From Iphione sp. A-MEVVRFRX5 (Eukaryota), in contig OZ320317.1 of assembly GCA_976226885.1 (NCBI GenBank), positions 11,780,001 through 11,844,000 on the forward strand: 64,000 bases of DNA, in the 5' to 3' direction. Positions 4,458 to 58,957 of the stretch are shown piece after piece (positions within the stretch are counted from its first letter, which is position 1; every line of letters starts with the position of its first letter). The notes beneath the pieces were generated by a model. The model searched no databases. It was not told the DNA's origin and was given only the letters and a program-made list of their open reading frames with translations. Position numbers and translations under genes: made by a program.

Positions 4458-5126
4458 CTAATCTCGTGAATTATTTCTGAGCATAGATTTGTAAAATTTT
4501 TCGGCCCAGATATCAGTTGTTTCGTCCGTTGGGTGAAGTCCATCTTTCAGTTTATTAAAGAACGATCTGTACTTAGTTTTTTGATAGTGATGAACTGGCA
4601 CCTCCAGCCATGGAGAAATATATCCATTGAAATCATTAGTTTTGATGATTACATTATTTATTTTCTGTATAGCAGCATTGAAATTCTTCTGTGTTTGTGG
4701 GTCAATAGGAGAGTAATTCTTGTCCAATGCCTTTGCAGTGTTGTACCGATCAAAACTCATGGATGAAACAGGGCACCAGATAACCCGTGGTGGATTTGAC
4801 ATGGTTTGAAGTTTGTTGATATGCTGTGAGAGCGTGGTGGTGAACCTGCTGAAGAGAGAGTCAGTATCGGTGTGAATGGGCAGTGTTTGGAAGGACATCG
4901 TGTCATGATAGATGAGGTCACTAATCCCTCCAAATACGTATATTAAATAATACGACGGTAGGCTATCGTTATGATAGATACTATCACACAGTCTATTGAG
5001 ATCTGCCCCTGGCTGTACTATAACTTCAACATCAAAATCATTTCCAGCACGGGGACCGATGGCCTCTGACAAGCCTCTTCCTCTCGCGTCGGAGACAATC
5101 AGAATTTTCTTCTTATCGGAATGCAT
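4458..5126 (-). CDS. Uninterrupted SGNH/GDSL hydrolase-like ORF (222 aa), probably transposon-associated esterase type
   Basis: SGNH blocks in the correct order and spacing: ILIVSDARGRGL (block I), QPGADL (II), VFGGISDL (III), KLKDGLHP (V). A possible in-frame acceptor tttcag|GTCGAC lies 18 nt upstream of the ATG. Confidence 0.7.
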   Translation of the reverse strand: MHSDKKKILIVSDARGRGLSEAIGPRAGNDFDVEVIVQPGADLNRLCDSIYHNDSLPSYYLIYVFGGISDLIYHDTMSFQTLPIHTDTDSLFSRFTTTLSQHINKLQTMSNPPRVIWCPVSSMSFDRYNTAKALDKNYSPIDPQTQKNFNAAIQKINNVIIKTNDFNGYISPWLEVPVHHYQKTKYRSFFNKLKDGLHPTDETTDIWAEKFYKSMLRNNSRD

Positions 5127-5237
5127 ATCATTTGCCGTGTCGACCTGAAAGATTCATAGAACCCAACTTAGTCAATGGTATTTTACAATAGAATAGACAG
5201 TGTAGTTGCTAATAGATTCAATCTCCACCAGGTATTG

Positions 5238-36200: not shown

Positions 36201-39200
36201 AAAGTTTGCTGACCGTAGTCATGTCTCGAAGCATGGTGGTTTTGTGCTTCCACTAGGTGTCAGTGTGAAGGGGAACCTCCTTAGGAGACAACCCTCTCCA
36301 TTTCTAGTGTTGAAAAATATAATAATTTCTGCAGGTTTACTGTTATCCCTATAAATGTGACATCATTGTGTCCTAATTTCTTGATGAGTGTTGGTCAGTG
36401 GAGATCAGACACGAGATGCAGCAATACGTTTGATCTCAACTATATACGGAGGGACTAATGGGTAGATTTTACTGAGCTGTGGTCATTGAATCTCCAGCTA
36501 GTAGGGTGGTGAACAGAGCTGATAAGAGAGTCAGTCCTGTGATGTTTGAGCCAGCTTCACTCTGGTGAGAGGGAGTGTACTGATGAGGGAGAGGCTGCAC
36601 AGCAAGCCCATCTACACTTTATCTTAATGCGGATGATAGCTTATGATAGCAAGGAACACACGGTGGGCCAGTCTACCCCATCCTTGATTGATGGCTGATG
36701 ACTGGATGGACAGGAAATAGCAAGGAATACATGATGAGTTGCTTTATGCCTTATCTGGTGGATGACTAATGACTAGATGGGAGGGGGATAACAAGGAATG
36801 CACAGTGAGCCCATTTACACCAGTCCTGAGTCATGGCTGATGACTGGGTGGACAGGAAATAGCAAGGAATGCCTGATGAGCTGGTTTACACCTTATCTTG
36901 GTGATGGCTAATGACTAGATGGGAGGGGGATAACAAGGAATGCACAGTGAGCCCATTTACACCAGTCCTGAGTCATGGCTGATGACTGGGTGGACAGGAA
37001 ATAGCAAGGAATGCCTGATGAGCTGGTTTACACCTTATCTTGATGATGGCTAATGACTAGATGGGAGGGGGATAACAAGGAATGCACAGTGAGCCCATTT
37101 ACACCAGTCCTGAGTGATGGCTGATGACTGGATGGACAGGAAATAGCGAGGAACGCCTGACGAGCTGGTTTGCACCCTATCTTGGGGATGGCAAATGACT
37201 AGATGGGAGGGAGATAACAAGGAATGCACAGTGAGCCTGTTTACACTAGTCCTGATTGATGACTGATGACTGGGTGGACAGGAAATAGCAAGGAATACAT
37301 GACAAACTGGTTTACACCTTATCTTAGGGATGACTAATGACTAGATGGGAGGGGGATAACAAGGAATGCACAGTGAGCCCGTTTACACCAGTCCTGAGTG
37401 ATGACTGATGACTGGGTGGACAGGAAATAACAAGGAATGCCTGATGAGCTGGTTTGCACCTTATCTTGGTGATGGCTAATGACTAGATGGGAGGGGGATA
37501 ACAAGGAATGCACAGTGAGCCCGTTTACACCAGTCCTGAGTGATGGCTGATGACTGGGTGGACAGGAAATAGCAAGGAATACATGACAAGCTGGTTTACA
37601 CCTTATCTTAGGGATGACTAATGACTAAATGGGTGGGGGATAACAAGGAATGAACAATGAGCCTATTTACACTAGTCTTGATTGATGACTGATGACTGGG
37701 TGGGCAGGGATTTGTCCTGATTGATAGGTGATAGAGTAGGACGGGAGGGGATAGCGTTAAACACATGGTGAGCCCATCTACATTCTTCCTCGTTTAGCTG
37801 GGGAATATGGGACAGTCTCATGCATTGGGAGGGAAGGGGACAGCTCTTCCTGATTGAGTTATCCACTGTGCAGCTTTCAGTCGCACCTTCAGCTAGTTAT
37901 AACTCCTCATTTAGCTGGGGTTAATGGGACAGTCTCAAGCAGTGATTTACAATTTTCTGTTTTCTCATTTCCAAAGCCTTCACTGTCATTTTAGTTTTAT
38001 GGATATCCATTTCCATAGAAACGCTATTTTGTTCTTACTTGTGCAGAATGCTAAAACCAGAAATTTTACTTATAACGGTGGTTGCATAGAATTTTTTAAT
38101 ACTTTTTTAATACTAAATTGTACGGAAAAATATATTGGACACACGCTGGCTTGGGCTGACCTGTAGCTCCCTTGAATCCCACCAGTGGACGGGACTGCTG
38201 ATATAGTGGGGACTCAGATAAATACGGACCCACAGGGGAGACCAACTCAGGGGAGTGACCAAAATTGTCCAGTACCAAACTGTGATTCCACATGAATTAT
38301 CAACTCAGAGGGGAGACCAGCACAAGGGAAAGACCAAAATTGTCCAGTTCCAAACTAATTCCACATGAATTATCAACTCACAGGGGACACAAACACAAGG
38401 GAGAGTCCAAAATTGTCCTGTCCCCAGCTTGGTCTCCCATGTGAGTTTCCACTGTACAGGAGAAACTTACTTTGCGACCATATTGCTTTCCGACCAAAAC
38501 GACCATTACAACCATTTTGGGTCGGAACGGAATCAATTTCAGTACATTTCATATGAGTGATTATTGCTTTGCGACCATAATGCTTTCCGATCATATTCAG
38601 CCTGCGACCACACCTCCTAGGGTCGTTTTCTGTATATATTATTATTGCTTTGCGACCAAGCAGCCGACGCTGGAGAGGCAGTGGTTGCAGGCTTCAACTG
38701 CAACGTCTTTGATGGTCACTCACCCTGGAGAGGGTCAGCTGGCAGTGGTTGCAGGCTTCAACTGTGACGTCTTTAATGGTCTCTCACCCTGGAGGGGTAG
38801 GCTGGCAGTGGTCGCGCAGTGGTCGCGGGCTTCAACTGTGATGTCTTTGATGGTCTCTCACCCTGGAGGGGTAGGCCGGCAGTGGTCGCAGGCTTCAACT
38901 GTGACGTCTTTGATGGTCCTTTACCTCTTTGAGTCACTTTTAGTCATCAAATTAGGCACTTTTTGGACTTAAAGTCATCAAATTCAGCACTTTTTGGACG
39001 TTTCATATGTTAATAGAGAGAGAGGGAGAAAGGGATATTGTCTTCAGCCTAGACCCCCTACAGAATTGCTTTGCGACCATATTCGCTATTACAACCATTT
39101 TGGGCCGACCCGACTGGTGGTCGCAAAGTAAGGTTCTCCTGTACTCAGGTTGCAGCCTGTATTACCTGGGTGGTAAGAGATTGCAGCCTGTATTACCTGG

Positions 39201-42200
39201 GTGGTAAGAGATTGCAGCCTGTATTACCTGGATGGTAAGAGGTTGCAGTCTGTATTACCTGGATGGTAAGAGGTTGCAGCCTGTATAAGGCCCGGTTTCC
39301 TTACATGCGTTGGTCTGCGGCGAGGTGCGGCGGGCTATGCGTGCGTTTCCAGTGCGTTGGTCTGCATTGTGACTTCACCGCATGGCGACACACAGGGGTG
39401 CCCTTTGACAACCAGTGCGGGCCAGTGCGGACCAGTACGTTTTTTGACTGGAAAATATGGAAAATGGGCAAAACCCCCCCCCGAAAAACGGCAAATTTCA
39501 TGGAAATTGGCCCGATAAATGGCTAATTCCACGGAAATTCAGCTGAAAAACGGCAAATTTCATGGAAATTCGGCCGAAAAACGGCTGATTTCAAGGAAAT
39601 TCGGCCGAAAAACGGCAAAAATGTGCGGAAAAATTCGGGAAAAAAACGGCATTGTGCGGAAATGTGCGGATGTGTGCGGTAATCACCTTCAAAAAGTGAG
39701 TTAAAGTGAGTAAAAATGAGTAAATACCAGTGTGTTGCAGTGCGTTGCAGTGCGTTTGCAGCAAATTTACGGGAAGGGTCTGAAAACTAGCACCGCACTT
39801 CAACGCACAGTAATGCACACGGACGGCAACGCAGGTAAGGAAACACTCTCACTGATAACCTATAGAGCAATAATTATGTAATTCACCGCACTTCACCGCA
39901 CAGCAACGCACATGGACACCACCGCAGGTAAGGAAACCGGGGCTTACCTGGATGGTAAGAGGTTGCAGCCTGTATTACCTGGATGGTAAGAGGTTGCAGC
40001 CTGTATTACCTGGGTGGTAAGAGATTGCAGCCTGTATTACCTGGATGATAAGAGACTGGGAGGAGGTTTGACTTGCTTCTTAATTACAGTTAGGCCAGCG
40101 GTTCTCGGTGGCTGTGGAGGGACCATCTCGTGGTTACATCCTCGAAGTATTTGACGGTCACTTTGAACTTCCTAACCTCGGACCAATCGGTGAGGAATCC
40201 GGGCAGATTTATCTCATAACCCACCCCCAGAACAAATGCACTCCATTTAAGGGAGAAAACATCATGTAAACGGACTATTTTGCTATACCTGCTTATAGTT
40301 ACTTAGAATCTGACGAATGAAATTAGTTTCACCGTCAAGATTTATTATTTTTGGCTGCGTATATGTGTGTTCGTATTTGCAACTGACCCATCATGTGCCA
40401 TTGCTTTGCCATGCTACCCTGAATGTGGAATAATGTCTCACTATTTCGCCCCATACCCCCCACCCTCCCCCCTCCAATTTAAGGAGCCAATGGGCTAGCC
40501 AACCCTCGGGACTTTTTGACGCCCAAAGCCTGGTACGAAGACCGCCCCGTTCAGAACTACAAGATCATCAGCAAATACCAGGGGGCCCTCTTCCTGGCCC
40601 ACCAGGTAGGTGGGAAACGAGAGAAAACACAACTACCAGGTCGTACAATTCTAGGCTGACCTATCGCTCATAGTACTCGTGTATTTGTATGTACACATTG
40701 GGCCCTCATTTAGACCATAGTACATGTAATTTATTCTGCTGAAAGCTACCTACAGTTACAGTTGATGCTGGTGCATCGTGACAATAGATTCAGGAATTAA
40801 AAACAAAGAAAAGAAAACCATCTCTCAATTAGCCCACCTCTGCTGATAAAGGATATTCATACCGAGTTTCAATGGATGAATGAACACAAACAGATCCTTT
40901 TATGAGATAAGAAAGCACACCTGATGAGATATCCGTCCACCTTTGTTTCGGTTGAACAACTCTCTATGGTATGTTTTATTGATATCAACTCCTCTTTTGT
41001 AGGATCATTCCCCGTTCGATGTGGTGGCTTGGCATGGAAACTATGCCCCCTACAAGTACGACCTCAAGAACTTCATGGTGATCAACTCGGTGGCATTTGA
41101 TCACGCGGTAAGCATACCGCCCCCCCGCCCCCCCACCCCCCTGATAGTCTATAGTGTCTAATCCTAACCTGAGATTGAGTGTTAAGTCCTGTAAAGCTGA
41201 AATCGGCGGCGATGTCAATTGTCGTCTGCTGCCATCAATCATGAGCCGGTGGGCGGTTGACCGGCGGCTCCCAAACAAGACATGATACACATTCAATATT
41301 GACAACCCCTCGGATGTCAGCCTGCTAAGCAGTTGTCTCAATATTCGCTCTGTGCTGGTCTTGTCGGTGCCAGGACCCGTCCATCTTCACCGTGCTCACC
41401 TGCCAGTCGCTGCGGCCGGGCACCGCCATCGCCGACTTCGTCATCTTCCCGCCCCGCTGGAGCGTGTCGGAGCGCACCTTCCGCCCGCCCTACTACCACA
41501 GTAAGACTCGCTTCAATCAAAAAAAAGCATCTCACCACAATAATTTAGTACAATGTACATTTTTATTTTCATGTTTTTCAAGAAAAAAACGTACAGTAAA
41601 GATGGAGCAATAATGACTGACACGTCTTTCATTATTGTCTTTCAATAGTACCCTGCCTAAGTGTGTATTTATAACTAGCAATATACCCTGTCCCTTCGCA
41701 CGTTTGACCATTTTTACCACACCTGTTTACACTTATGTACAATTCCGCCTGAAAACCAGCCGCTGCCTGATACCGGATTTCCCTTTTATAGAAACTAACG
41801 ATCCCAAGACTGCAGGTTTTTTTTTTTTTTATACACTCAAACTTTTTCACCCGGAATATCTCTGTGTCCGAGAAAATCATCCAGACAAGGGCTTCTCTGG
41901 ACAAAATTAAACATTAAACTGGAGGAATATGATGAATTGTCCCTCGCACAGTCATCACGGTGATGATTCTGTTTCGCTGGATGAGGAGGTTTGCTTGTAT
42001 ACTGAAGGTGAGCGTTGTGTAGGCCAGCAGCGAAGTTGGTATTTCAGGGTTGTGGTATCTCCCTCAACAAATGTCAATGTCCATGATGCTTTAAGTTACC
42101 AGAAGTTTATATTCATATATCTCCTTTAACCCTTTTCCCTGATATTTCCAGAAGGTTCAGTTGTGATATACCCCCCCCCCCTCAACCCTTATCCGCAATG

Positions 42201-44933
42201 CTTTAGGTTCCAGAAGTTCTGGTTATGGTATCTTCCTCAATCCTAATCCCCGATGCTTGTAGACACAACTCTCGTTATGTTTGTACTCAGAGAGTTCGAT
42301 GTACAGTCAGACCTCATTAACCGGATGGTGTTCGTCACATCGATTTTTGTACAGATAGCAGATAATCTGGTTACCTAAACAGGAAAACATTAAATACATT
42401 CGTTCCTCAAGTTTAGTCTGGTTAATGAGGTCTTTTGGTTGTTCTGTCTTTGGATGGTGAGGTTTGACTCTATGCATATAATTTTGCTACTTCTGGTGAA
42501 TTATGTATTATATATGTGTGCTCCGAATTACCTTGTTTAAATATTTTTTGGTGACATGTTGGAAGTGCCCTCATCATTAATCATCACAGAATAATCTCTT
42601 GAGAACAGCTGAGCAAATATTTTATTTTGCTTTGGGTTTCAGGAAACTGTATGAGCGAGTTCATGGGTCTGATCCTTGGGAAGTATGAAGCCAAGGTAAG
42701 GATCTTACAATCTTGACCACTAGATTTGAATGATTACTATTGTTCCTTTATCCTTGAACAGGACAGTTAGTAATGCTGCCCGTCTGACCCTCTGACCTAC
42801 CTTGGTGTTTGTGGCCCTGTTAGCTCTAAAACCGAAGACACCAGGACTAGGAGAATGGGACTGACTGTTCCTTTCTGTGGATTTGTAGTGCTGCTTAATG
42901 TTGAAGATGCTAGCTAAAGAAACACAGGGTATTCACATTGTTACAGTGAGACTACCTAGATGTGACGTATGAACTGAACAAGCGCTCAGAGGGGTCAAAG
43001 CGGATCAAAGCTACTTGTAAAGCCAAAATTTTGTCTCCAGCAGGTTCCTTTTGCTACTAGATTGAGATGAATTGGGAACCTGGACCTAGTTAAGTTGTTA
43101 AATAGGTTTTATATATGTGTTTTCGTGTGTAGCTGAAGATTAATTCTTAATGTTGTTGCAGTATATTGATTCGTTGAGAAGGCACACCATCTACAGGGGA
43201 AACTTGCTTTGCGACCACCACTTGGGTCGGCCCAAAATGGTCGTAATTCTGAATATGGTCGCAAAGTGATTGTGTATGGGGGTCTGGGCTTGAAATCATA
43301 TCCCTTTCTCCCTCTCTCTTTATTAACATATGAAACGTCCAAAAAGTGCTGAATTTGATGACTTTAGGTCCAAAAAGTGCTGAATTTGATGACTTTAAGT
43401 CCAAAAAGTGCTGAATTTGATGACTAAAAGTGACTCAAAGAGGTAAGAGACCACTCTTGGGAGACCCTCTCCAGGGTGTGAGGAACATCAGAGACGTCCC
43501 CGTTGACGCCCGCGACCACCCCGGCCAACCCCTCCAGGGTGAGAGACCATCAAAGTCGTCGAAGTTAACGCCCGCGACCACTGCCGGCCAACCCCTCCAA
43601 GGTGTGAGGAACATCAGAGACGTCCCCGTTGACGCCCGCGACCACCCCTGCCAACCCCTCCAGGGTGAGAGACCATCAAAGTCGTCGAAGTTGACACCCA
43701 TTGACACAATCCACTGGCTGGGTGGTCGCAAAGTGATAGTAAAATATAATGAAAATGACCCTAAGATGAGTGGTCGTATGGTGAATTTGGTCGGAAAGCA
43801 ATATGGTCGCAAAGTGAGTTCCTCTCATGTAGGATATGTACTGAAAATAATTCCGTTCCGACCCAAAATGGTCGCAATAGTCGATTTGGTCGCAAAGTGA
43901 GGAGGTCGCAAAGTGAGTTTCTCCTGTATTGAGAAAATAAAACAAGTGGCCATACACATTGTGTGGAGAGACAATACGAACAAAAAGCGTTTTGTGTGTG
44001 ACCTGATAGTGTATAAATTCTTTACATACCTTTACCTGGACAGGAAGGTGGTTTTAACCCTGGAGGGGCCAGTCTCCACAGTTGCATGACCCCACACGGC
44101 CCTGACGCTGACTGCTTCGAGAAGGCTTCCCAAGGTGACCTCAAGGCACAGCGAATCGCAGACAACACACAGGTACGTTAGTGCACCATGTCCAGGGTAA
44201 AGACTGTGGCCAACGAGTGAACTTTAGTAACCGTGGCCACCTGTGTCTGCCCACTGGTACAAAGTCATGGTCACATTTCGCTGGTGAGTTCATGTATTCG
44301 ACTAATTTAATGTTGCCATGACTCAGATCACCTGTGAAGCAGTGGTGGTAAAATGCAGTGAATATAGTCTCTGTACATACATCTCACACACACAGAAGGA
44401 TTAACCCATGTTCATCTGGTATTTGCGTGTTGAATATTATCTGCACATTATGTTATCCCTATAGCCTTTACATGGGTTTAGTTTAATGTGCAGGTTCATT
44501 GTGTTTCATTGTGATGCCTTAGTTTCCATGTTAGTCGCTTTTGATGTCGGTGCTCTGTTGTACATTGCATACAGTGGTCCCCCCTTATCTGACATTTTTG
44601 GTTCCTTAAGATTTCAGTGGATATGTGAGATTTGTCAGATTAAGAAACATTTTCAATCAATTCTTTACCTTTGGTCCATAGAAACTCTGTCAGATAAGCA
44701 GTATTGTCGGTCATCGGTGGAAGGGGGACCACATGTATACAGAACATTCGCTTCAAATGCAACATTGAATGACTCTTTTGTCTTTCTTTTTTCAGGCTTT
44801 CATGTTTGAGTCCTCGCTGAGTATGCGGGTGACCACGTGGGGAAACGAAACATGTCAGAAGGTCGATCATGAATACTTCCAGTGCTGGCAGCCACTGAAG
44901 AAACATTTTGACCCAAACTGGAAGCAAACGTAA
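30295..44933 (+). CDS. HGD: Homogentisate 1,2-dioxygenase, 15 coding exons, 443 aa
   Basis: Exons 30295-30318, 32893-32964, 33407-33495, 34070-34175, 34369-34428, 34968-35059, 35477-35511, 35863-35942, 40090-40189, 40484-40605, 41003-41107, 41374-41500, 42643-42695, 44044-44172, 44796-44933. Hallmark peptides [74 protein letters not shown] and MTPHGPD; the Fe-ligand His/Glu/His are present. Exon 1 (aacATGG...GAG|gtaagg) is assigned by phase and splice signals only. Confidence 0.96.
33899..33990. repeat. Short tandem repeat with tagacagtttgtct core, 4 copies
   Basis: The core recurs at ~23-25 bp spacing. Confidence 0.7.
34481..34681. other. Assembly gap (run of N) in HGD intron 5
   Basis: Run of about 200 N following a (GT/GC)-type simple repeat. 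Confidence 0.99.
35154..35279. repeat. Long inverted repeat: 57-bp arms, 12-nt spacer, 3 mismatches
   Basis: Arm 35154-35210 is the reverse complement of 35223-35279; weaker pairing extends about 30 bp further out on each side. Confidence 0.9.
36640..37710. repeat. 142-bp satellite made of two related 71-bp subunits, about 7 copies
   Basis: (g/a)ctgatgactgg recurs every 142 bp from about 36693 to 37687. Each unit has two halves of the form gatgact...gga...aaggaat...tttacacc. Confidence 0.9.
38207..38454. mobile_element. Probable small Tigger-type MITE with internal ~75-bp repeats
   Basis: Right end catgtgagtttccactg|TA (CAGTGGAAACTCACATG on the other strand); degenerate left end TA|tagtggggactcagat. 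Internal accaaaattgtcc...ttccacatgaattatcaactca repeats. Confidence 0.5.
38457..39141. mobile_element. Tigger-type MITE (685 bp), copy A
   Basis: TA|CAGGAGAAACTTACTTTGCGACCA...TGGTCGCAAAGTAAGGTTCTCCTG|TA: 24-bp TIR with 1 mismatch and a TA TSD. Confidence 0.9.
39148..40055. repeat. 31-bp minisatellite interrupted by a MITE
   Basis: Unit gttgcagcctgtattacctgggtggtaagag, about 4 copies before 39289 and 3-4 copies after 39943. Confidence 0.9.
39289..39943. mobile_element. PIF/Harbinger-type MITE (655 bp), related to 6209-6754, opposite orientation
   Basis: TAA|GGCCCGGTTTCCTTACATGCGTTGGT...ACCACCGCAGGTAAGGAAACCGGGGC|TTA: 26-bp TIR with 3 mismatches, inserted at the TTA of a minisatellite unit. 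Confidence 0.88.
43194..43926. mobile_element. Tigger-type MITE (733 bp), copy B, inverted relative to copy A
   Basis: TA|CAGGGGAAACTTGCTTTGCGACC...GGTCGCAAAGTGAGTTTCTCCTG|TA. The reverse complement of 43194-43370 aligns closely with about 38970-39141. Contains 31-bp and ~60-bp internal repeats. Confidence 0.9.
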
Positions 44934-45553
44934 GCTCTCGTGTGAATAAGTCAATTGTAGATACCTTTTATTCAAGGGGAAGACTCCTCACATTTACTTT
45001 TTTCTAGGGATTAAAAACATTATTCACGAGGCCTGTATCACTCTGTTTCTTGGGAAATCGTGTTTTTCTGTATTTAATCCCACCCTTCTTTTGCGTGAGG
45101 TAGCGTACCTACATCGTATAGTTTGAAAACGTTTAATTCCACCCGATATATGATCACCTTTCTTCATCTCAAGCGAAAGGTTAATACTTGATGGGGAGAC
45201 CAAAGTTTACCACTGCTACATTTTCCAGTGAAAGAAATAGGAAGCAGAATCGCTTTTTACTATCAGTCATGAAGACCTGAATTATCATGTTACAGGACCT
45301 GTGCTTGAGCCCTAGTTGATTATGATTGACATGCGCCGGTACATTGCATAGATGATGCAAACAAAAAAATGTTGGCTATGATCCAAAAACTTCAAGTGTT
45401 GATAAGTATTTGTTTTCCTTATAATCTTGCACTGGTATAATCTTGCACGGGTCAAGGTATTTGCAAAAGTACCTGTGGTGATCCAATCCTTCCATCTTAG
45501 TTTGGTGCAGTACAGATCAGTTTATGTTCTGTTTTATCTCTATCCTGTGCTAG

Positions 45554-45608
45554 AGATGGGGAATCAGCTAATGGAGAATCTCCAAAGAAGAAAGTGAAGA
45601 GAAACTAG
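45554..45608 (+). CDS. HGD: Probable additional terminal coding exon of HGD encoding (T)DGESANGESPKKKVKRN*
   Basis: Donor AAC|GTAAGC at 44929/44930 overlaps the default stop. Acceptor tttatctctatcctgtgctag|A at 45554 is phase-compatible (phase 2). The frame is open to TAG at 45606-45608, followed by a second strong donor CAG|GTAAGC at 45614/45615. Confidence 0.65.
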
Positions 45609-45621
45609 AATCAGGTAAGCA

Positions 45622-45820
45622 ATATCCATGGTTAATCAACAAGACATTGCTGCTGTTTTTCATTTATAACACCAATGATAAAAAGGTATCTGCACTTAAC
45701 CAACATGATAATATTGCTGTTTTTAATTTATACCCACCAATAATGATAAGGTATCCATGGTCAATCAACAAGATAATGCTGCTGTTTTCAATTTACAACA
45801 CCAGTAATAATAAGGTATGA
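45622..45820. repeat. ~63-bp tandem repeat, 3 copies
   Basis: tatccatggttaatcaacaag..attgctgctgtttt.attta.aacacca.t.at.ataaggta recurs. Confidence 0.75.
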
Positions 45821-47231
45821 CAGTTTATTCTCTCTGATTATTAATGAGGACTCACTTTCTTCCCCTTCCATTACCTCTAACCGCCCAATTTATCTGCCAG
45901 TCTGTCTGCTGATCTGTCTTTTTCTCAGGACAGCCTACAGCCTATCTTTGGTGCCATACTGATAACTTGTTTGTTAATTATATTATTACCTCTCACAGAA
46001 TAGGAAGTTAAAGGTTGATTAGGGGTTATATAAACACAAACAGTTTTATATATGAATACTTTTTACATGTTTCTCTTGCCTGAGCCTAGGCCTGGGTCTG
46101 ACAATAACCACCATTCCATACCCTTACTCATCTGTTTATCATCTGGATCCTTGTATAATAATTATGGGAAAATATTCATTTCAAGCACTGGACTATGGAC
46201 CTTTACACATGGACCCAATCACAAGGATTAGGCCCAGTTGATTGTTATAATACCGTCTTTTCCTCTACAAACATATCCTTAGTCTGTTTTCTTAATTGAC
46301 CAATCACTGTGTATCTGCAAAACACGCGACACCGTCCAATGACAGATAGTAATTAATCAAGACCATATCTTAATAAGGAAGAAGTTATCTTAATAACCAT
46401 TTGTATCATTTAGACAGACACCCACTAGTATCTGCAACTACAGAAACTAGAATTAGGAAAATTTCTAATTGCTATGGGTCACCATGGGATGTAAATTGAA
46501 GACAACATCACATGACCTATCACAATGGGTGGCAGTTATGAATGGAACTTTTCAGTGCCATTAGTCAAGGTAGCACTAGCAGGACACAGTCAACCACAGC
46601 CTCGTATATCGACATCATAATAAGGAAGAAAATGAGCCAAAACATGGCTTAAGGATTCCATGGCCATGTAAAGTTTTGCTGTGGATTTGTGGTAAAAAGT
46701 ACTGAGAGTCCGCATATCAATGTAAACACTATCGTTTGTGATGTCCAGTGCTTCATGGATACATGGTGACCAGTAAGTTGGACACATGAAATATATATAT
46801 TATATGAATAAATGTTATGAGATACACAACAGAATCTTAGTTTTGATATGGACAGAGACATTCTAATGTTGAGGAATTACATGATATAGGGGCATGCCAT
46901 TAAATTAATAACAAACATTTGTATGATGAGCCTGATGTATGAAGTAGTTTGTGTGTGTTAAAATATTAGATGCCGAAATGATAACCCAGTAAGGATGCAT
47001 GATAGGCCCCTCTTCAAGGCCCCAAATAGGAAAAAAACAGATAAAATTGATTTCATTAGAGCACCTGAATTCTTAGTAAGCTTCTCAGTCATTTTCACCT
47101 CATCAGCACCAGGCATCATGAATATCTTGCATACCAAGTGGAAACTACCTGGGTATGATCTATGTACAAGACCTCCATACTCATACAAATTGTGGCAGTG
47201 CTTGCAAAGTCTTTGATGTGAAAAAGCCATG

Positions 47232-53962: not shown

Positions 53963-53966
53963 CAAG

Positions 53967-55565
53967 ATGTCTTCCCCCAAGAGAAGAGAACTGTGTCTTG
54001 CTGAGAAGGTGAAACTCATCCAGGCTAGTGAGGGTAAAAGTCAGAGGACTCTTGCCAGCCAATTCAACATAGGCAAGACACAAGTTCACAACATCTTGAA
54101 GAGGAAGGCATCCATCATGGAGGACTTTGATAGGTCCTTCAACCCTCAGGCCAAGAGAAGACATCTATCCCCTGACCTCACCCTCATGGATGAGACAGTC
54201 TTCACCTGGTTTCAGACAGCCAGGGATTCCCAGGTCCCTGTCTCAGGACCATTGATCAGGGAGAGAGCCCAGCATATCAGCAAGGAACTGGGGATAGACA
54301 ACTTCTCTGCCTCTGAGGGATGGCTCCACAGATTCAAGAAGAGGCACTGCATCTCAGGGGTCAAGTTGTCTGGAGAGAGGGCCAGTGTCCCTGAGGGGGC
54401 AGTAGAGCAGTGGCATGAGAGGCTGCCCACCCTCCTTGAGGGATACAAGGAAGAAGACATCTTCAACATGGATGAGACTGGTATCTTCTTCCGGGTCCTC
54501 CCAGACAGAACCCTTGCTGTGAAGGGCAGTGACACAGCTGGGGGTAAGAAGAGTAAGGAGAGGTTGACTCTTGCCCTCTGTGTATCAATGGCTGGACACT
54601 TTGAGAAGCCCCTGGTCATTGGGAAGGCTGCAAGACCCAGGGCCTTCAGGAATTTGGACCTCAATGATTTACCAGTGACATGGAGGTCCAACAAGAAGGC
54701 CTGGATGGTCTCTTCAATCTTTGAGGGGTGGCTCCAGGCCTTCAACAAGAAGATGAAGGCCCAGGGCAGGAAAGTGGCATTGATCTTGGACAATGCCCCT
54801 TCACATCCACATCATCTGAAGGTGTCCAATGTGAAGTTGGTCTTCCTCCCTGCCAACACCACTTCCCTGCTGCAGCCCCTTGACCGGGGGATCATCAAAC
54901 TGGTGAAGAGCCACTATCAGAAAGCAGTCCTCAGGCATGTGCTGGCCAAGTTGGACAGTGGAGCAGACTCCCAGCAGATCATCAAAAGTGTTGATGTCCA
55001 CATGGCCATCACCTGGATGAAGGCAGCTGTGAAGGCTGTGCCAGCCAGCACAGTCTTCAAGTGCTTCAAGAAGGCAGGAGTATCCCCTGACCCAGGTGAT
55101 GCTGACCTCAGCCAGTCACAGCCTGAGGAGGAAGATGAGGAGGAGATCCCCCTGGCAGAGCTCCTCAGAAGGACACATGAAGGACTTCACCTCCCAGGGA
55201 CAGCTCTGACCAGGGAGGACTATGAGGAGATGACCAGCTGCCCATCTCATGATCCCCAGGACATGGGGTGGGAACAACGTATCATTGAGGAGGCCAAGGA
55301 GAAGGCTGGTCTACAGGTACCAGATGAGGAATCCAGGGATGGTGATGATGATGATGATGATGCTGATGATGATCCCATCCCAGGAAGCCAGCACAATCAT
55401 CATGAGATCCTCAACATGCTGGATCATGTTAGGGTGTATTGCCTGTCCAAGGGTATTGCCCCTGCATTGGACCCTGTCATGGACATTATTAACATTCTTG
55501 AGAAAAACCAGGCCCAAAGGATCAGGGTGCAGCCAACACTCCACCAGTTTTTTAAGAAGGAGTAA
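53967..55565 (+). CDS. Intact pogo/Tigger transposase, 532 aa, DD30D
   Basis: N-terminal HTH (LCLAEKVKLI...SQFNIGKTQV), CENP-B HTH (VSGPLIRERA...ASEGWLHRF), catalytic NMDETG, ILDNAPSH and LQPLDRG (30 residues between the last two Asp), acidic linker and C-terminal QPTLHQFF PIP box. AATAAA at 55623. Confidence 0.95.
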   Translation: MSSPKRRELCLAEKVKLIQASEGKSQRTLASQFNIGKTQVHNILKRKASIMEDFDRSFNPQAKRRHLSPDLTLMDETVFTWFQTARDSQVPVSGPLIRERAQHISKELGIDNFSASEGWLHRFKKRHCISGVKLSGERASVPEGAVEQWHERLPTLLEGYKEEDIFNMDETGIFFRVLPDRTLAVKGSDTAGGKKSKERLTLALCVSMAGHFEKPLVIGKAARPRAFRNLDLNDLPVTWRSNKKAWMVSSIFEGWLQAFNKKMKAQGRKVALILDNAPSHPHHLKVSNVKLVFLPANTTSLLQPLDRGIIKLVKSHYQKAVLRHVLAKLDSGADSQQIIKSVDVHMAITWMKAAVKAVPASTVFKCFKKAGVSPDPGDADLSQSQPEEEDEEEIPLAELLRRTHEGLHLPGTALTREDYEEMTSCPSHDPQDMGWEQRIIEEAKEKAGLQVPDEESRDGDDDDDDADDDPIPGSQHNHHEILNMLDHVRVYCLSKGIAPALDPVMDIINILEKNQAQRIRVQPTLHQFFKKE

Positions 55566-57175: not shown

Positions 57176-58957
57176 TTACAAGTGCTTTCAGCATGGAGGG
57201 TGAAACTGATAGCCCCGGCGACCATCTGACTAGGGAGGTGTGAGGGGGAGGACAGTGCAAGCTCCCGAGTCCAGTTAAGCAGAACCGAAGGTTGTAAAGT
57301 TGAAAGACCAAGAGCTCGGGGGAGGGTGTCAGAGATGGGAGAGTGGTCAAAGTAGAGAGTGTACATCATATCCCTACTCAATGTTGAGAAAATAGTGTCA
57401 CAGATGTCCTTATTTTTAGCGGTAATCATCCTACATACAGAAAACAAGAAGCAGCATGCTTCTTTTTTCCTAAAATATCCTTATTAATCTTTCAGTAAGA
57501 AAGTACAAGTGTTTGACGGAGTCTAACACCCATGAGAGCTCCTCCCCATGGCCGTACTACTTTTAGGCAACATTTAATATAGGTAGTGTTATAATTATAA
57601 CAAAACAAGGCTGACCTAATCACTCATCTCTTGAAGCTAACTTGTTGTGGAGATGATAGGTAAAGAAACAAGATATATGTAGATATTAACATATTGTAAT
57701 GTGTCTCTGTTCTTGGGTGAGTGTTGGCATTTGAAATAAAAGTTGTCCACACAAGTATGCATTTGGTGTTGCTCTCTTCAAGTGCAGTGAGAGTCTGCCT
57801 TTATTCAGGAAAAATCTGGGCCCTTATATACACAGTCTGGCTCTAAAGTTAGCCTTAGTTATGCAAGAACATCTTAAATATAGCAACAATTAACACCTCC
57901 TGATTGATCTTCCCGCTTGCACCGGAAGATTTGCAGATTGCACTGAGCCCTACCTTTTCCTGTCTTGAGTCAGAAGAATTCCACTTTGATACATAATTCT
58001 AACAGAGCGAGTCCTTAGCTAGTGAAAGTGCAATGTTCCAGGTTGACTGCTACAATATGTTCTAGTCAACACTGCATATGGGTTATTGCATTGAGATTGG
58101 TGACCCTATCCATAGTATTCCTAGATGTGCAAAACTTTGCCCTTCAGTTTCACTACTCATCCAGCTCCTCATTATAGTACGTGCATTAGCCTGTTCTTTT
58201 TTCTCATAATTATTCCAATTCTGTTTGAGAGGAGGGATAGTGATAGGGAGTGCGTGGTGTGTGGATAGAGGGCGGAGTGTGGGAGAGTGAGTGGGAATGA
58301 AGGAGTGAAGGAGTGAAAGGAGTGAAGGAATGAAGTGAGTGGCATAGAGTGAGTGACATGCAGTCACTCACTTCTGTCCATTACCCCCATTATCCCTACA
58401 ATCCCTTAATACTGCTCTCCTTTTGGTCCTTGAACGATACACTTCTTTATCCTTTCATGGCTGTAGAAAAACAGCTTCTCAGCAGATTTGACTATTACTC
58501 AATTAACGGATTGCTGAAGTGTCAATGACACCGTTACAACACTTATGTTTACCATTTCTTAAGAAAATGTCTGGAAAACAAGCAAGCTGACTGGTGGATT
58601 CTCTATTATGACATCACGAATAGTAAAAAACGACCTGTTGTAATTGCTTCTGGCGATACGTTAATCATTGATATAATTCTATCAGTTTTGTACTGATCTT
58701 ATGGCCTGTTTTTCACGAAAAACAATAATTTCATTAATGTTTTAATAAGAACAAAAAACAGGAGACAATCTGACCAGGTTTCAACAAACGAACAATAGAT
58801 TAATTTCATATATTATATCTCTAGAAACAGACAACTTTCATCAACCTCATCTGGATAGTCACCTGATCCTCCCTATGGCTTATCTAACATTCCCCGTCAG
58901 CATACTCCTAGCCGCTATCCCCGACTCTCATCTGTCAGCTTAGCAGCTCATAAGTTG

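Follow-up and report, generated by a model that had tools for sequence, protein, structure and literature searches.

In Iphione sp., the gene that encodes homogentisate 1,2-dioxygenase (HGD) contains an additional 61-nt exon; the enzyme form carrying the tail that it encodes is likely the main product, and on balance we favour the prediction that this tail includes a nuclear localisation signal (NLS) by which the enzyme would enter the nucleus. HGD is the enzyme of alkaptonuria, and its step in tyrosine breakdown is regarded as cytosolic.

A complete HGD gene lies on the + strand of the window, by which we mean the whole 64,000-nt stretch of DNA that was analysed. It begins with an ATG at 30295, and its 16 exons, all bounded by GT-AG introns, form one open frame of 460 aa, whereas a halt in intron 15 leaves 443 aa. 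Exon 11 matches the Pfam family HgmA_N and exon 14 matches HgmA_C; all three exons tested against the HgmA families scored above the curated cut-off. The His/Glu/His motifs, which we take to be the iron ligands, are intact in the translation, and the product is predicted to be a homogentisate 1,2-dioxygenase. Exon 15 has a single match across the 1.18-Gb genome, on which ground confusion with a paralogue was rejected; the gene is single-copy. In a tree of 45 rows the window HGD falls inside an 18-row clade with Capitella and Dimorphilus (SH-aLRT 96), which makes the animal a likely annelid, and an earlier tree placed it beside Owenia and the same clade rows with lower support; both were quick trees, built without bootstrap. 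The features of the gene are listed in Table 1.

Table 1. Features of the HGD gene and its 3′ region (positions in the window).
Feature	Position	Strand	Basis
HGD coding exons 1-14	30295..44172	+	GT-AG junctions, single open frame; Pfam
HGD exons 1-5	30295-30318, 32893-32964, 33407-33495, 34070-34175, 34369-34428	+	
HGD exons 6-10	34968-35059, 35477-35511, 35863-35942, 40090-40189, 40484-40605	+	
HGD exons 11-14	41003-41107, 41374-41500, 42643-42695, 44044-44172	+	
HGD exon 15, final exon of the catalytic core, phase-2 end	44796..44929	+	HgmA_C positions 117-153 of 153
Intron 15, 624 nt; weak donor overlapping TAA 44931-44933, weak acceptor	44930..45553	+	Splice scores
ATTAAA, possible poly(A) signal for the short 443-aa form	45010..45015	+	Chance frequency
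Exon 16 (61 nt), encoding an acidic/NG linker, an SP site and a basic cluster; stop at 45606-45608, followed by 6 nt of 3′ UTR	45554..45614	+	Counterparts in L004, L016, L014, L028
NLS-like motif SPKKKVKRN at the C-terminus	45579..45605	+	Consensus fit; register conserved in annelids
Strong donor of a 3′-UTR intron, 6 nt past the stop	45615..45620	+	Score 11.0
Likely last, non-coding exon 17, up to AATAAA at 46807	45929..46812	+	Acceptor score; poly(A) hexamers

The additional exon had been proposed from the sequence alone, and the features on which that proposal was built were confirmed. Joining 44929 to 45554 proceeds in phase and produces 460 aa rather than 443 aa, with the tail as it had been given. 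Exon 15 ends AC/GTAAGC, and reading through gives ACG followed by TAA; a further donor, AG/GTAAGC, follows position 45614, 6 nt past the tail's stop. The acceptor AG of exon 16 occupies 45552-45553 and the stop of the tail is a TAG. Splice sites were scored using matrices built from the HGD gene's own 14 upstream introns. The donor at 44929 scores 4.9 (the 14 upstream donors range from 4.7 to 12.7 by leave-one-out), which is in the top 5.6% of 3746 GT sites, and the acceptor at 45554 scores 2.6, below 13 of the 14 upstream acceptors and in the top 12% of 3721 AG sites; intron 15 has weak splice sites at both ends. The donor at 45614, at 11.0, is in the top 0.24% of the window's GT sites. The first strong acceptor 3′ of exon 16 is that at 45929 (score 8.4), and skipping of exon 16 to this site would yield a non-basic end of 11 residues. 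Among 149 candidate acceptors downstream, a strongly basic product arises from two, 45554 and one 17 kb away; the latter sits in a purine-rich stretch. A search downstream for an exon end of the chiton/limpet type, [KR]-x-[FY]-x-[FY], did not find one, the single match, at 57473, being unrelated.

Several lines of evidence indicate that exon 16 is almost certainly real. Of 239 overlapping 1.5-kb tiles cut from the window, 8 contained a phase-2 acceptor whose product ends in K[KR]x[KR] (at 3 distinct sites), and block shuffles of the real downstream DNA gave a basic-tail acceptor in 4 of 300 cases; when an upstream NG was additionally required, a condition chosen after the tails had been seen, the counts were 0/239 and 0/300. 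Conservation of the exon in relatives had been put forward as a check on the sequence-only reading, and it was found. A pattern scan of metagenome contigs returned 28 loci, 24 of them HGD (L002, L003, L020 and L027 were dropped as non-HGD), and the intron-15 region was examined in 10 of 29 loci. Four HGD loci (L014, L028, L006 and L025) are intronless over >420 codons, and for this reason are likely mRNA. L014 and L028 run for 434 and 437 uninterrupted codons and then, still in frame, enter a basic tail whose last residues are SPKKRIRTS in L014 and TPRKKSKTK in L028; no basic tail was seen in L006 or L025. The genomic loci L004 and L016, which lie on unrelated contigs, match the window in the codon and phase at which a GT stands; 265 and 976 nt downstream of it, respectively, follows an exon that includes NG and ends in a basic cluster. 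In L004 the acceptor of this exon is the best-scoring one within 1.5 kb; in L016 it is not (6.8 versus 11.6, 10.3 and 8.3 elsewhere in the region). Shuffles of these two regions reach such an exon in 3 and 5 of 300 cases, and in 0/300 when NG is required. L005 has no GT at the position of the intron 15 donor, and L007, L008 and L021 have the GT with no basic exon within 1.5 kb.

The orthologue check suggested with the original reading gave the same answer among protein records: a basic tail is present in annelid and bivalve relatives, and is patchy within the annelid clade. Fused, truncated or frameshifted records (e.g. P0049, P0058, P0064, P0145 and P0171) were omitted from the species tally, and P0137 and P0120 were left out because the anchor was missing. 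Basic tails occur in records of two of the three named annelids, Capitella teleta (ELT89014) and Dimorphilus gyrociliatus (CAD5119267-70), and in 20 of 23 bivalve species; for 18 of these 23 species every tallied record is tailed. One of the three annelids and two of the 23 bivalves have records of both kinds, tailed and tail-less. The listed oyster and scallop records are all tailed and the mussel records mostly so. None of 71 non-spiralian records (vertebrate, other deuterostome, ecdysozoan, cnidarian and sponge) and none of five other spiralians has the tail. Three gastropods scored positive, of which only Lymnaea has a true basic tail; those of Nucella and Candidula were set aside as apparently incidental motif matches. 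Chiton, limpets, abalone and Solemya have a [YF][ST]F end in place of the tail. In the annelid clade the tail is found in 6 of 17 rows besides the window and is missing from 11; tail-less P0181 is sister to tailed P0291, and tail-less P0207 to tailed P0183, which implies that the tail is dispensable or often spliced out. The tailed species are kin, and represent two or three lineages rather than twenty events. In Dimorphilus, four records on one contig, likely isoforms, have two different ends that part at the codon of the window's exon 15, and one of the tails has NGES in common with that of the window. Homology of the annelid and bivalve tails is likely, if short of proof.

The likeness of the tail to the SV40 NLS, pointed out in the sequence-only reading, is upheld by closer comparison. 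The tail contains the K-(K/R)-X-(K/R) core that the available part of PMC7764567 gives as the classical monopartite consensus, and its predicted P1-P5 residues, K K K V K, would keep a Lys at the P2-like position, which is described as a conserved and critical NLS residue in the portions seen of PMC9563117 and PMC4569319. To select tails without regard to residue order, we required at least 4 K/R in the last 9 residues, which retained 9 of 22 annelid and 22 of 25 bivalve sequences. Among the nine annelid tails, position -6 is Lys in eight and Arg in none, as against K17:R19 at the neighbouring positions (Fisher p 0.0065, with independence overstated since the rows are related). Position -8 is Pro in 7/9, -5 is K or R in 8/9, -4 varies, -3 is K or R in 9/9, and NG or DG stands upstream in 8/9; the register of the Dimorphilus tail is shifted by two. 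This pattern suggests a P2-P5 ligand rather than a generic basic patch. The bivalve tails are almost all Lys, with no P2 signal (p 1.0) and a variable register, and weigh neither for nor against it. The SP site to which attention had been drawn is present in the window, but no more than 5 of the 9 annelid tails and 2 of the 22 bivalve ones have the full [ST]PxK/R motif.

The model of the relative P0017, built with 110 sequences, has a mean pLDDT of 91.5 and core blocks of 73-99, and in this monomer model residues 441-463 have a pLDDT of 59-65 and are without secondary structure. A complex prediction of the importin-alpha ARM domain (P0331, 86-505) with the P0017 tail (434-463) scored 0.72 against 0.64 for the unrelated-chain control, too narrow a gap to count for or against binding; P0331 comes from another animal, and even a clear pass would have mirrored likeness to solved NLS complexes. 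The genome itself has three matches to the Arm_3 family (importin-alpha). Judged on its residues and their conservation, the tail has a fairly good chance of being a working NLS, and entry of HGD into the nucleus is predicted as likely.

That exon 16 might be a pseudo-exon arisen by chance in an A-rich 3′ UTR is highly improbable: pairs of an acceptor and a strong donor do turn up fortuitously, the window having 17 of them on its + strand and 14 on its - strand (real exons included), but the architecture shared by L004 and L016, the in-frame tails of two intronless contigs, the NGES common to the window and Dimorphilus and the null tests argue against this, and we rejected it. The status given to the two ends by the sequence-only reading, a default stop and a hidden alternative tail, is not supported either and is probably reversed, given that intronless contigs of relatives carry the tail, as do the oyster, scallop and most of the mussel records. 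The overlap of stop and donor, to which it had pointed, is shared by the gene's other two phase-2 introns, so that 3/3 run into an immediate stop upon read-through; as a GTAA or GTAG donor in phase 2 always gives a read-through stop, the overlap is uninformative about the default end. We consider the tailed 460-aa form to be probably the main product, with intron 15 normally spliced and exon 16 usually included. Nonsense-mediated decay follows a 50-55-nt rule. With its stop only 6 nt ahead of the final junction, the mRNA with exon 16 would escape decay, while an mRNA that retains intron 15 and has lost intron 16 would have its stop ~680 nt before the junction and become a target. For the short form to be made, polyadenylation would have to occur within intron 15, and tail-less minor forms may come from such polyadenylation or from skipping to 45929. 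A regulated splice switch, in which the 443-aa read-through form would be the abundant cytosolic enzyme and the tailed form a conditional nuclear isoform, appears unlikely. It could explain the weakness of both sites of intron 15, the ATTAAA 81 nt into the intron, the 7 residues of the read-through tail (an unremarkable length, seen also in the P0037 cluster and in L005/L007), the differing tails of Dimorphilus CAD5119267/68 and 69/70, parting at the window's codon, and the X1/X2 records of Mercenaria and Ruditapes with and without the tail. However, the overlap of the stop simply follows from phase 2; ATTAAA is at chance frequency (the gene's other introns predict 0.75 for 624 nt) and is absent from the corresponding intron of L004; intron retention would invite decay; the Dimorphilus short end is incompatible with phase-2 GT read-through by codon logic, and so indicates a second exon and not retention; and the tail is in all tallied records of those 18 bivalve species. 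While we retain the tailed form as the likely main product, the records of Dimorphilus, Mercenaria and Ruditapes make a switch by alternative last exons plausible in the clade, and putative for the window species.

One may also accept the exon and see in its tail a flexible polybasic patch whose target is nucleic acid, an acidic lipid or some partner, or which affects stability, in an enzyme that stays cytosolic. Short basic motifs are indeed common, the tail is patchy in annelids and replaced by the [YF][ST]F end in the molluscs named above, and HGD is regarded as cytosolic. Such a patch is nevertheless rather unlikely, since a Lys fixed at one position while K and R swap elsewhere would not be expected of it, and the endings of other sorting signals occur in a minority of tails or are absent. 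A di-lysine signal for ER retrieval combines Lys at -3 with a second one at -4 or -5 and acts on a membrane protein; HGD is soluble. The window tail fits KxKxx, but just 3 of the 9 annelid and 8 of the 22 bivalve tails share this spacing, and this candidate was discarded, as were PTS1 ([SAC][KRH][LM]) and CaaX (Cys at -4) ends, seen in 0 of 31 basic tails.

If the tail is an import signal, it would project, flexible and exposed, from the HGD hexamer, which at ~300 kDa is too large to diffuse through nuclear pores, and would dock on importin-alpha, its Lys at -6 occupying pocket P2; through the SPKK site next to it, a CDK may adjust import. Within the nucleus the enzyme would most likely clear homogentisate as usual, a guess that we favour over moonlighting of the kind reported for nuclear FAH with CDK9. 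Homogentisate can autoxidise and damage DNA. Specifically, damage to DNA by copper-catalysed autoxidation is mentioned in the accessible portion of PMC9338888, citing Hiraku 1998. By our own reasoning homogentisate is small enough for nuclear pores, and a nuclear enzyme is without obvious need. We put forward only tentatively, as a possibility that we consider less likely than not, the wider model that HGD of annelids and most bivalves would be nuclear by virtue of an exon-encoded classical NLS dating from the lophotrochozoan ancestor and toggled by alternative last exons (in some annelids, by a CDK), with tyrosine breakdown, or a moonlighting function, partly nuclear.

In the largely open-access literature searched, we found no report of nuclear HGD or of a basic HGD tail, nor a paper with a phrase stating that HGD is cytosolic; PMC3013027, in the part available, treats HGD only as an HNF4 target gene. 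The basic tail already exists in public protein records, while both it and nuclear HGD are apparently unreported in the literature searched. We regard the tail as real and conserved, nuclear localisation as predicted from it, and the function there as a guess. For annotation, a phase-2 stop overlapping a GTAA donor should not be read as the end of a gene, which here would lose a conserved exon 16. Public records of oyster, mussel and Capitella are already tailed, making the NLS reading testable in these animals at once.

The window protein has the Pfam families of homogentisate 1,2-dioxygenases (PF20510, HgmA_N, and PF04209, HgmA_C) and is 70-77% identical to animal HGDs, and its relative P0017 aligns with the human HGD structure (PDB 1EY2) over residues 3-442; it differs from known HGDs in a 17-residue extension encoded by the additional exon. 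The annelid and bivalve HGD records resemble it in having an acidic or NG-containing linker followed by a terminal basic cluster, although they are automatic annotations, whose names are shown with no remark on the tail, and the bivalve tails, nearly all Lys and in a different register, are unlike that of the window. Compared with K K K V K at P1-P5 of the window tail, SV40 has K K K R K and c-Myc, with Val at P4, has A K R V K (Table 5 of PMC9563117, as far as seen); a phosphorylatable site just upstream is a further likeness to the SV40 NLS (PMC7764567, same part). Unlike classical NLSs, the window motif stands at the very C-terminal end of an oligomeric metabolic enzyme, for which import is a prediction. 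Another metabolic enzyme, PFKFB3, is made as splice variants whose C-termini either have or lack an NLS, and its alternative last exons set nuclear entry, whereas the corresponding switch in HGD is putative. From the same pathway as HGD, the tyrosine-catabolism enzyme FAH is reported to have a nuclear pool in breast cancer cells; in the portion of PMC13626039 available, the text on NLSs concerns an added NLS, HGD figures only as an mRNA measurement, and FAH relocates under drug and binds CDK9. Should the import signal prove true, nuclear HGD would be a pool built into large animal groups, in contrast to the nuclear FAH of tumour cells described in that part of PMC13626039.

Among the protein records of homogentisate 1,2-dioxygenase (HGD) from Pomacea (P0026, P0062 and P0065), Owenia (P0012 and P0068) and Patella vulgata (P0288 and P0289), the last residues are the sole difference within each set. 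These differences at the C-terminus indicate that the last exons of HGD vary across lophotrochozoans, and on this comparison of sequences such variable last exons are widespread in the group. In the window, a 64-bp repeat array begins just 3′ of the donor of exon 16, the exon encoding the basic tail, and each unit is closed by a donor-like AAG|GTAT. The stop of the corresponding tail exon in L004, a metagenome contig carrying HGD, once more overlaps a GTAAG and lies about 60 nt past the acceptor at 301; this GTAAG is a possible second phase-2 donor.

HGD introns 8 and 13, as read from the sequence, hold related repeat elements. Elsewhere, the 440-codon frame rich in (M/I/V)DRG, for which no Pfam match was obtained in the two pieces searched, is apparently one exon of a multi-exon gene; the start of this gene seems to lie near 29900, in a head-to-head arrangement with HGD. 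A Pfam search with the 231-codon frame was likewise without match, and short tandem repeats precede the transposase frame.

Repeats and other open frames in the window
Feature	Position	Strand	Characteristics
231-codon open frame	4458-5153	-	
440-codon frame	24512-25834	-	many (M/I/V)DRG tetrapeptide repeats
Repeat element, HGD intron 8	38445-39010		opposite orientation to related element in intron 13
Repeat element, HGD intron 13	43109-43900		opposite orientation to related element in intron 8
64-bp repeat	45623-45818		three copies
Tigger/pogo-type transposase	53964-55565	+	uninterrupted frame; CENP-B_N, HTH_Tnp_Tc5, DDE_1

Comparison of the protein records also revealed a second recurring HGD C-terminus, [YF]-[ST]-F, found in a chiton, limpets, abalone, other gastropods, Solemya, one crinoid and one sponge (P0010, P0026, P0090, P0095, P0120, P0186, P0189, P0212, P0237 and P0290). 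No exon encoding an end of this type was found downstream of HGD within the window. The [YF]-[ST]-F end looks like another conserved terminal signal, a C-terminus of the PDZ class II type.
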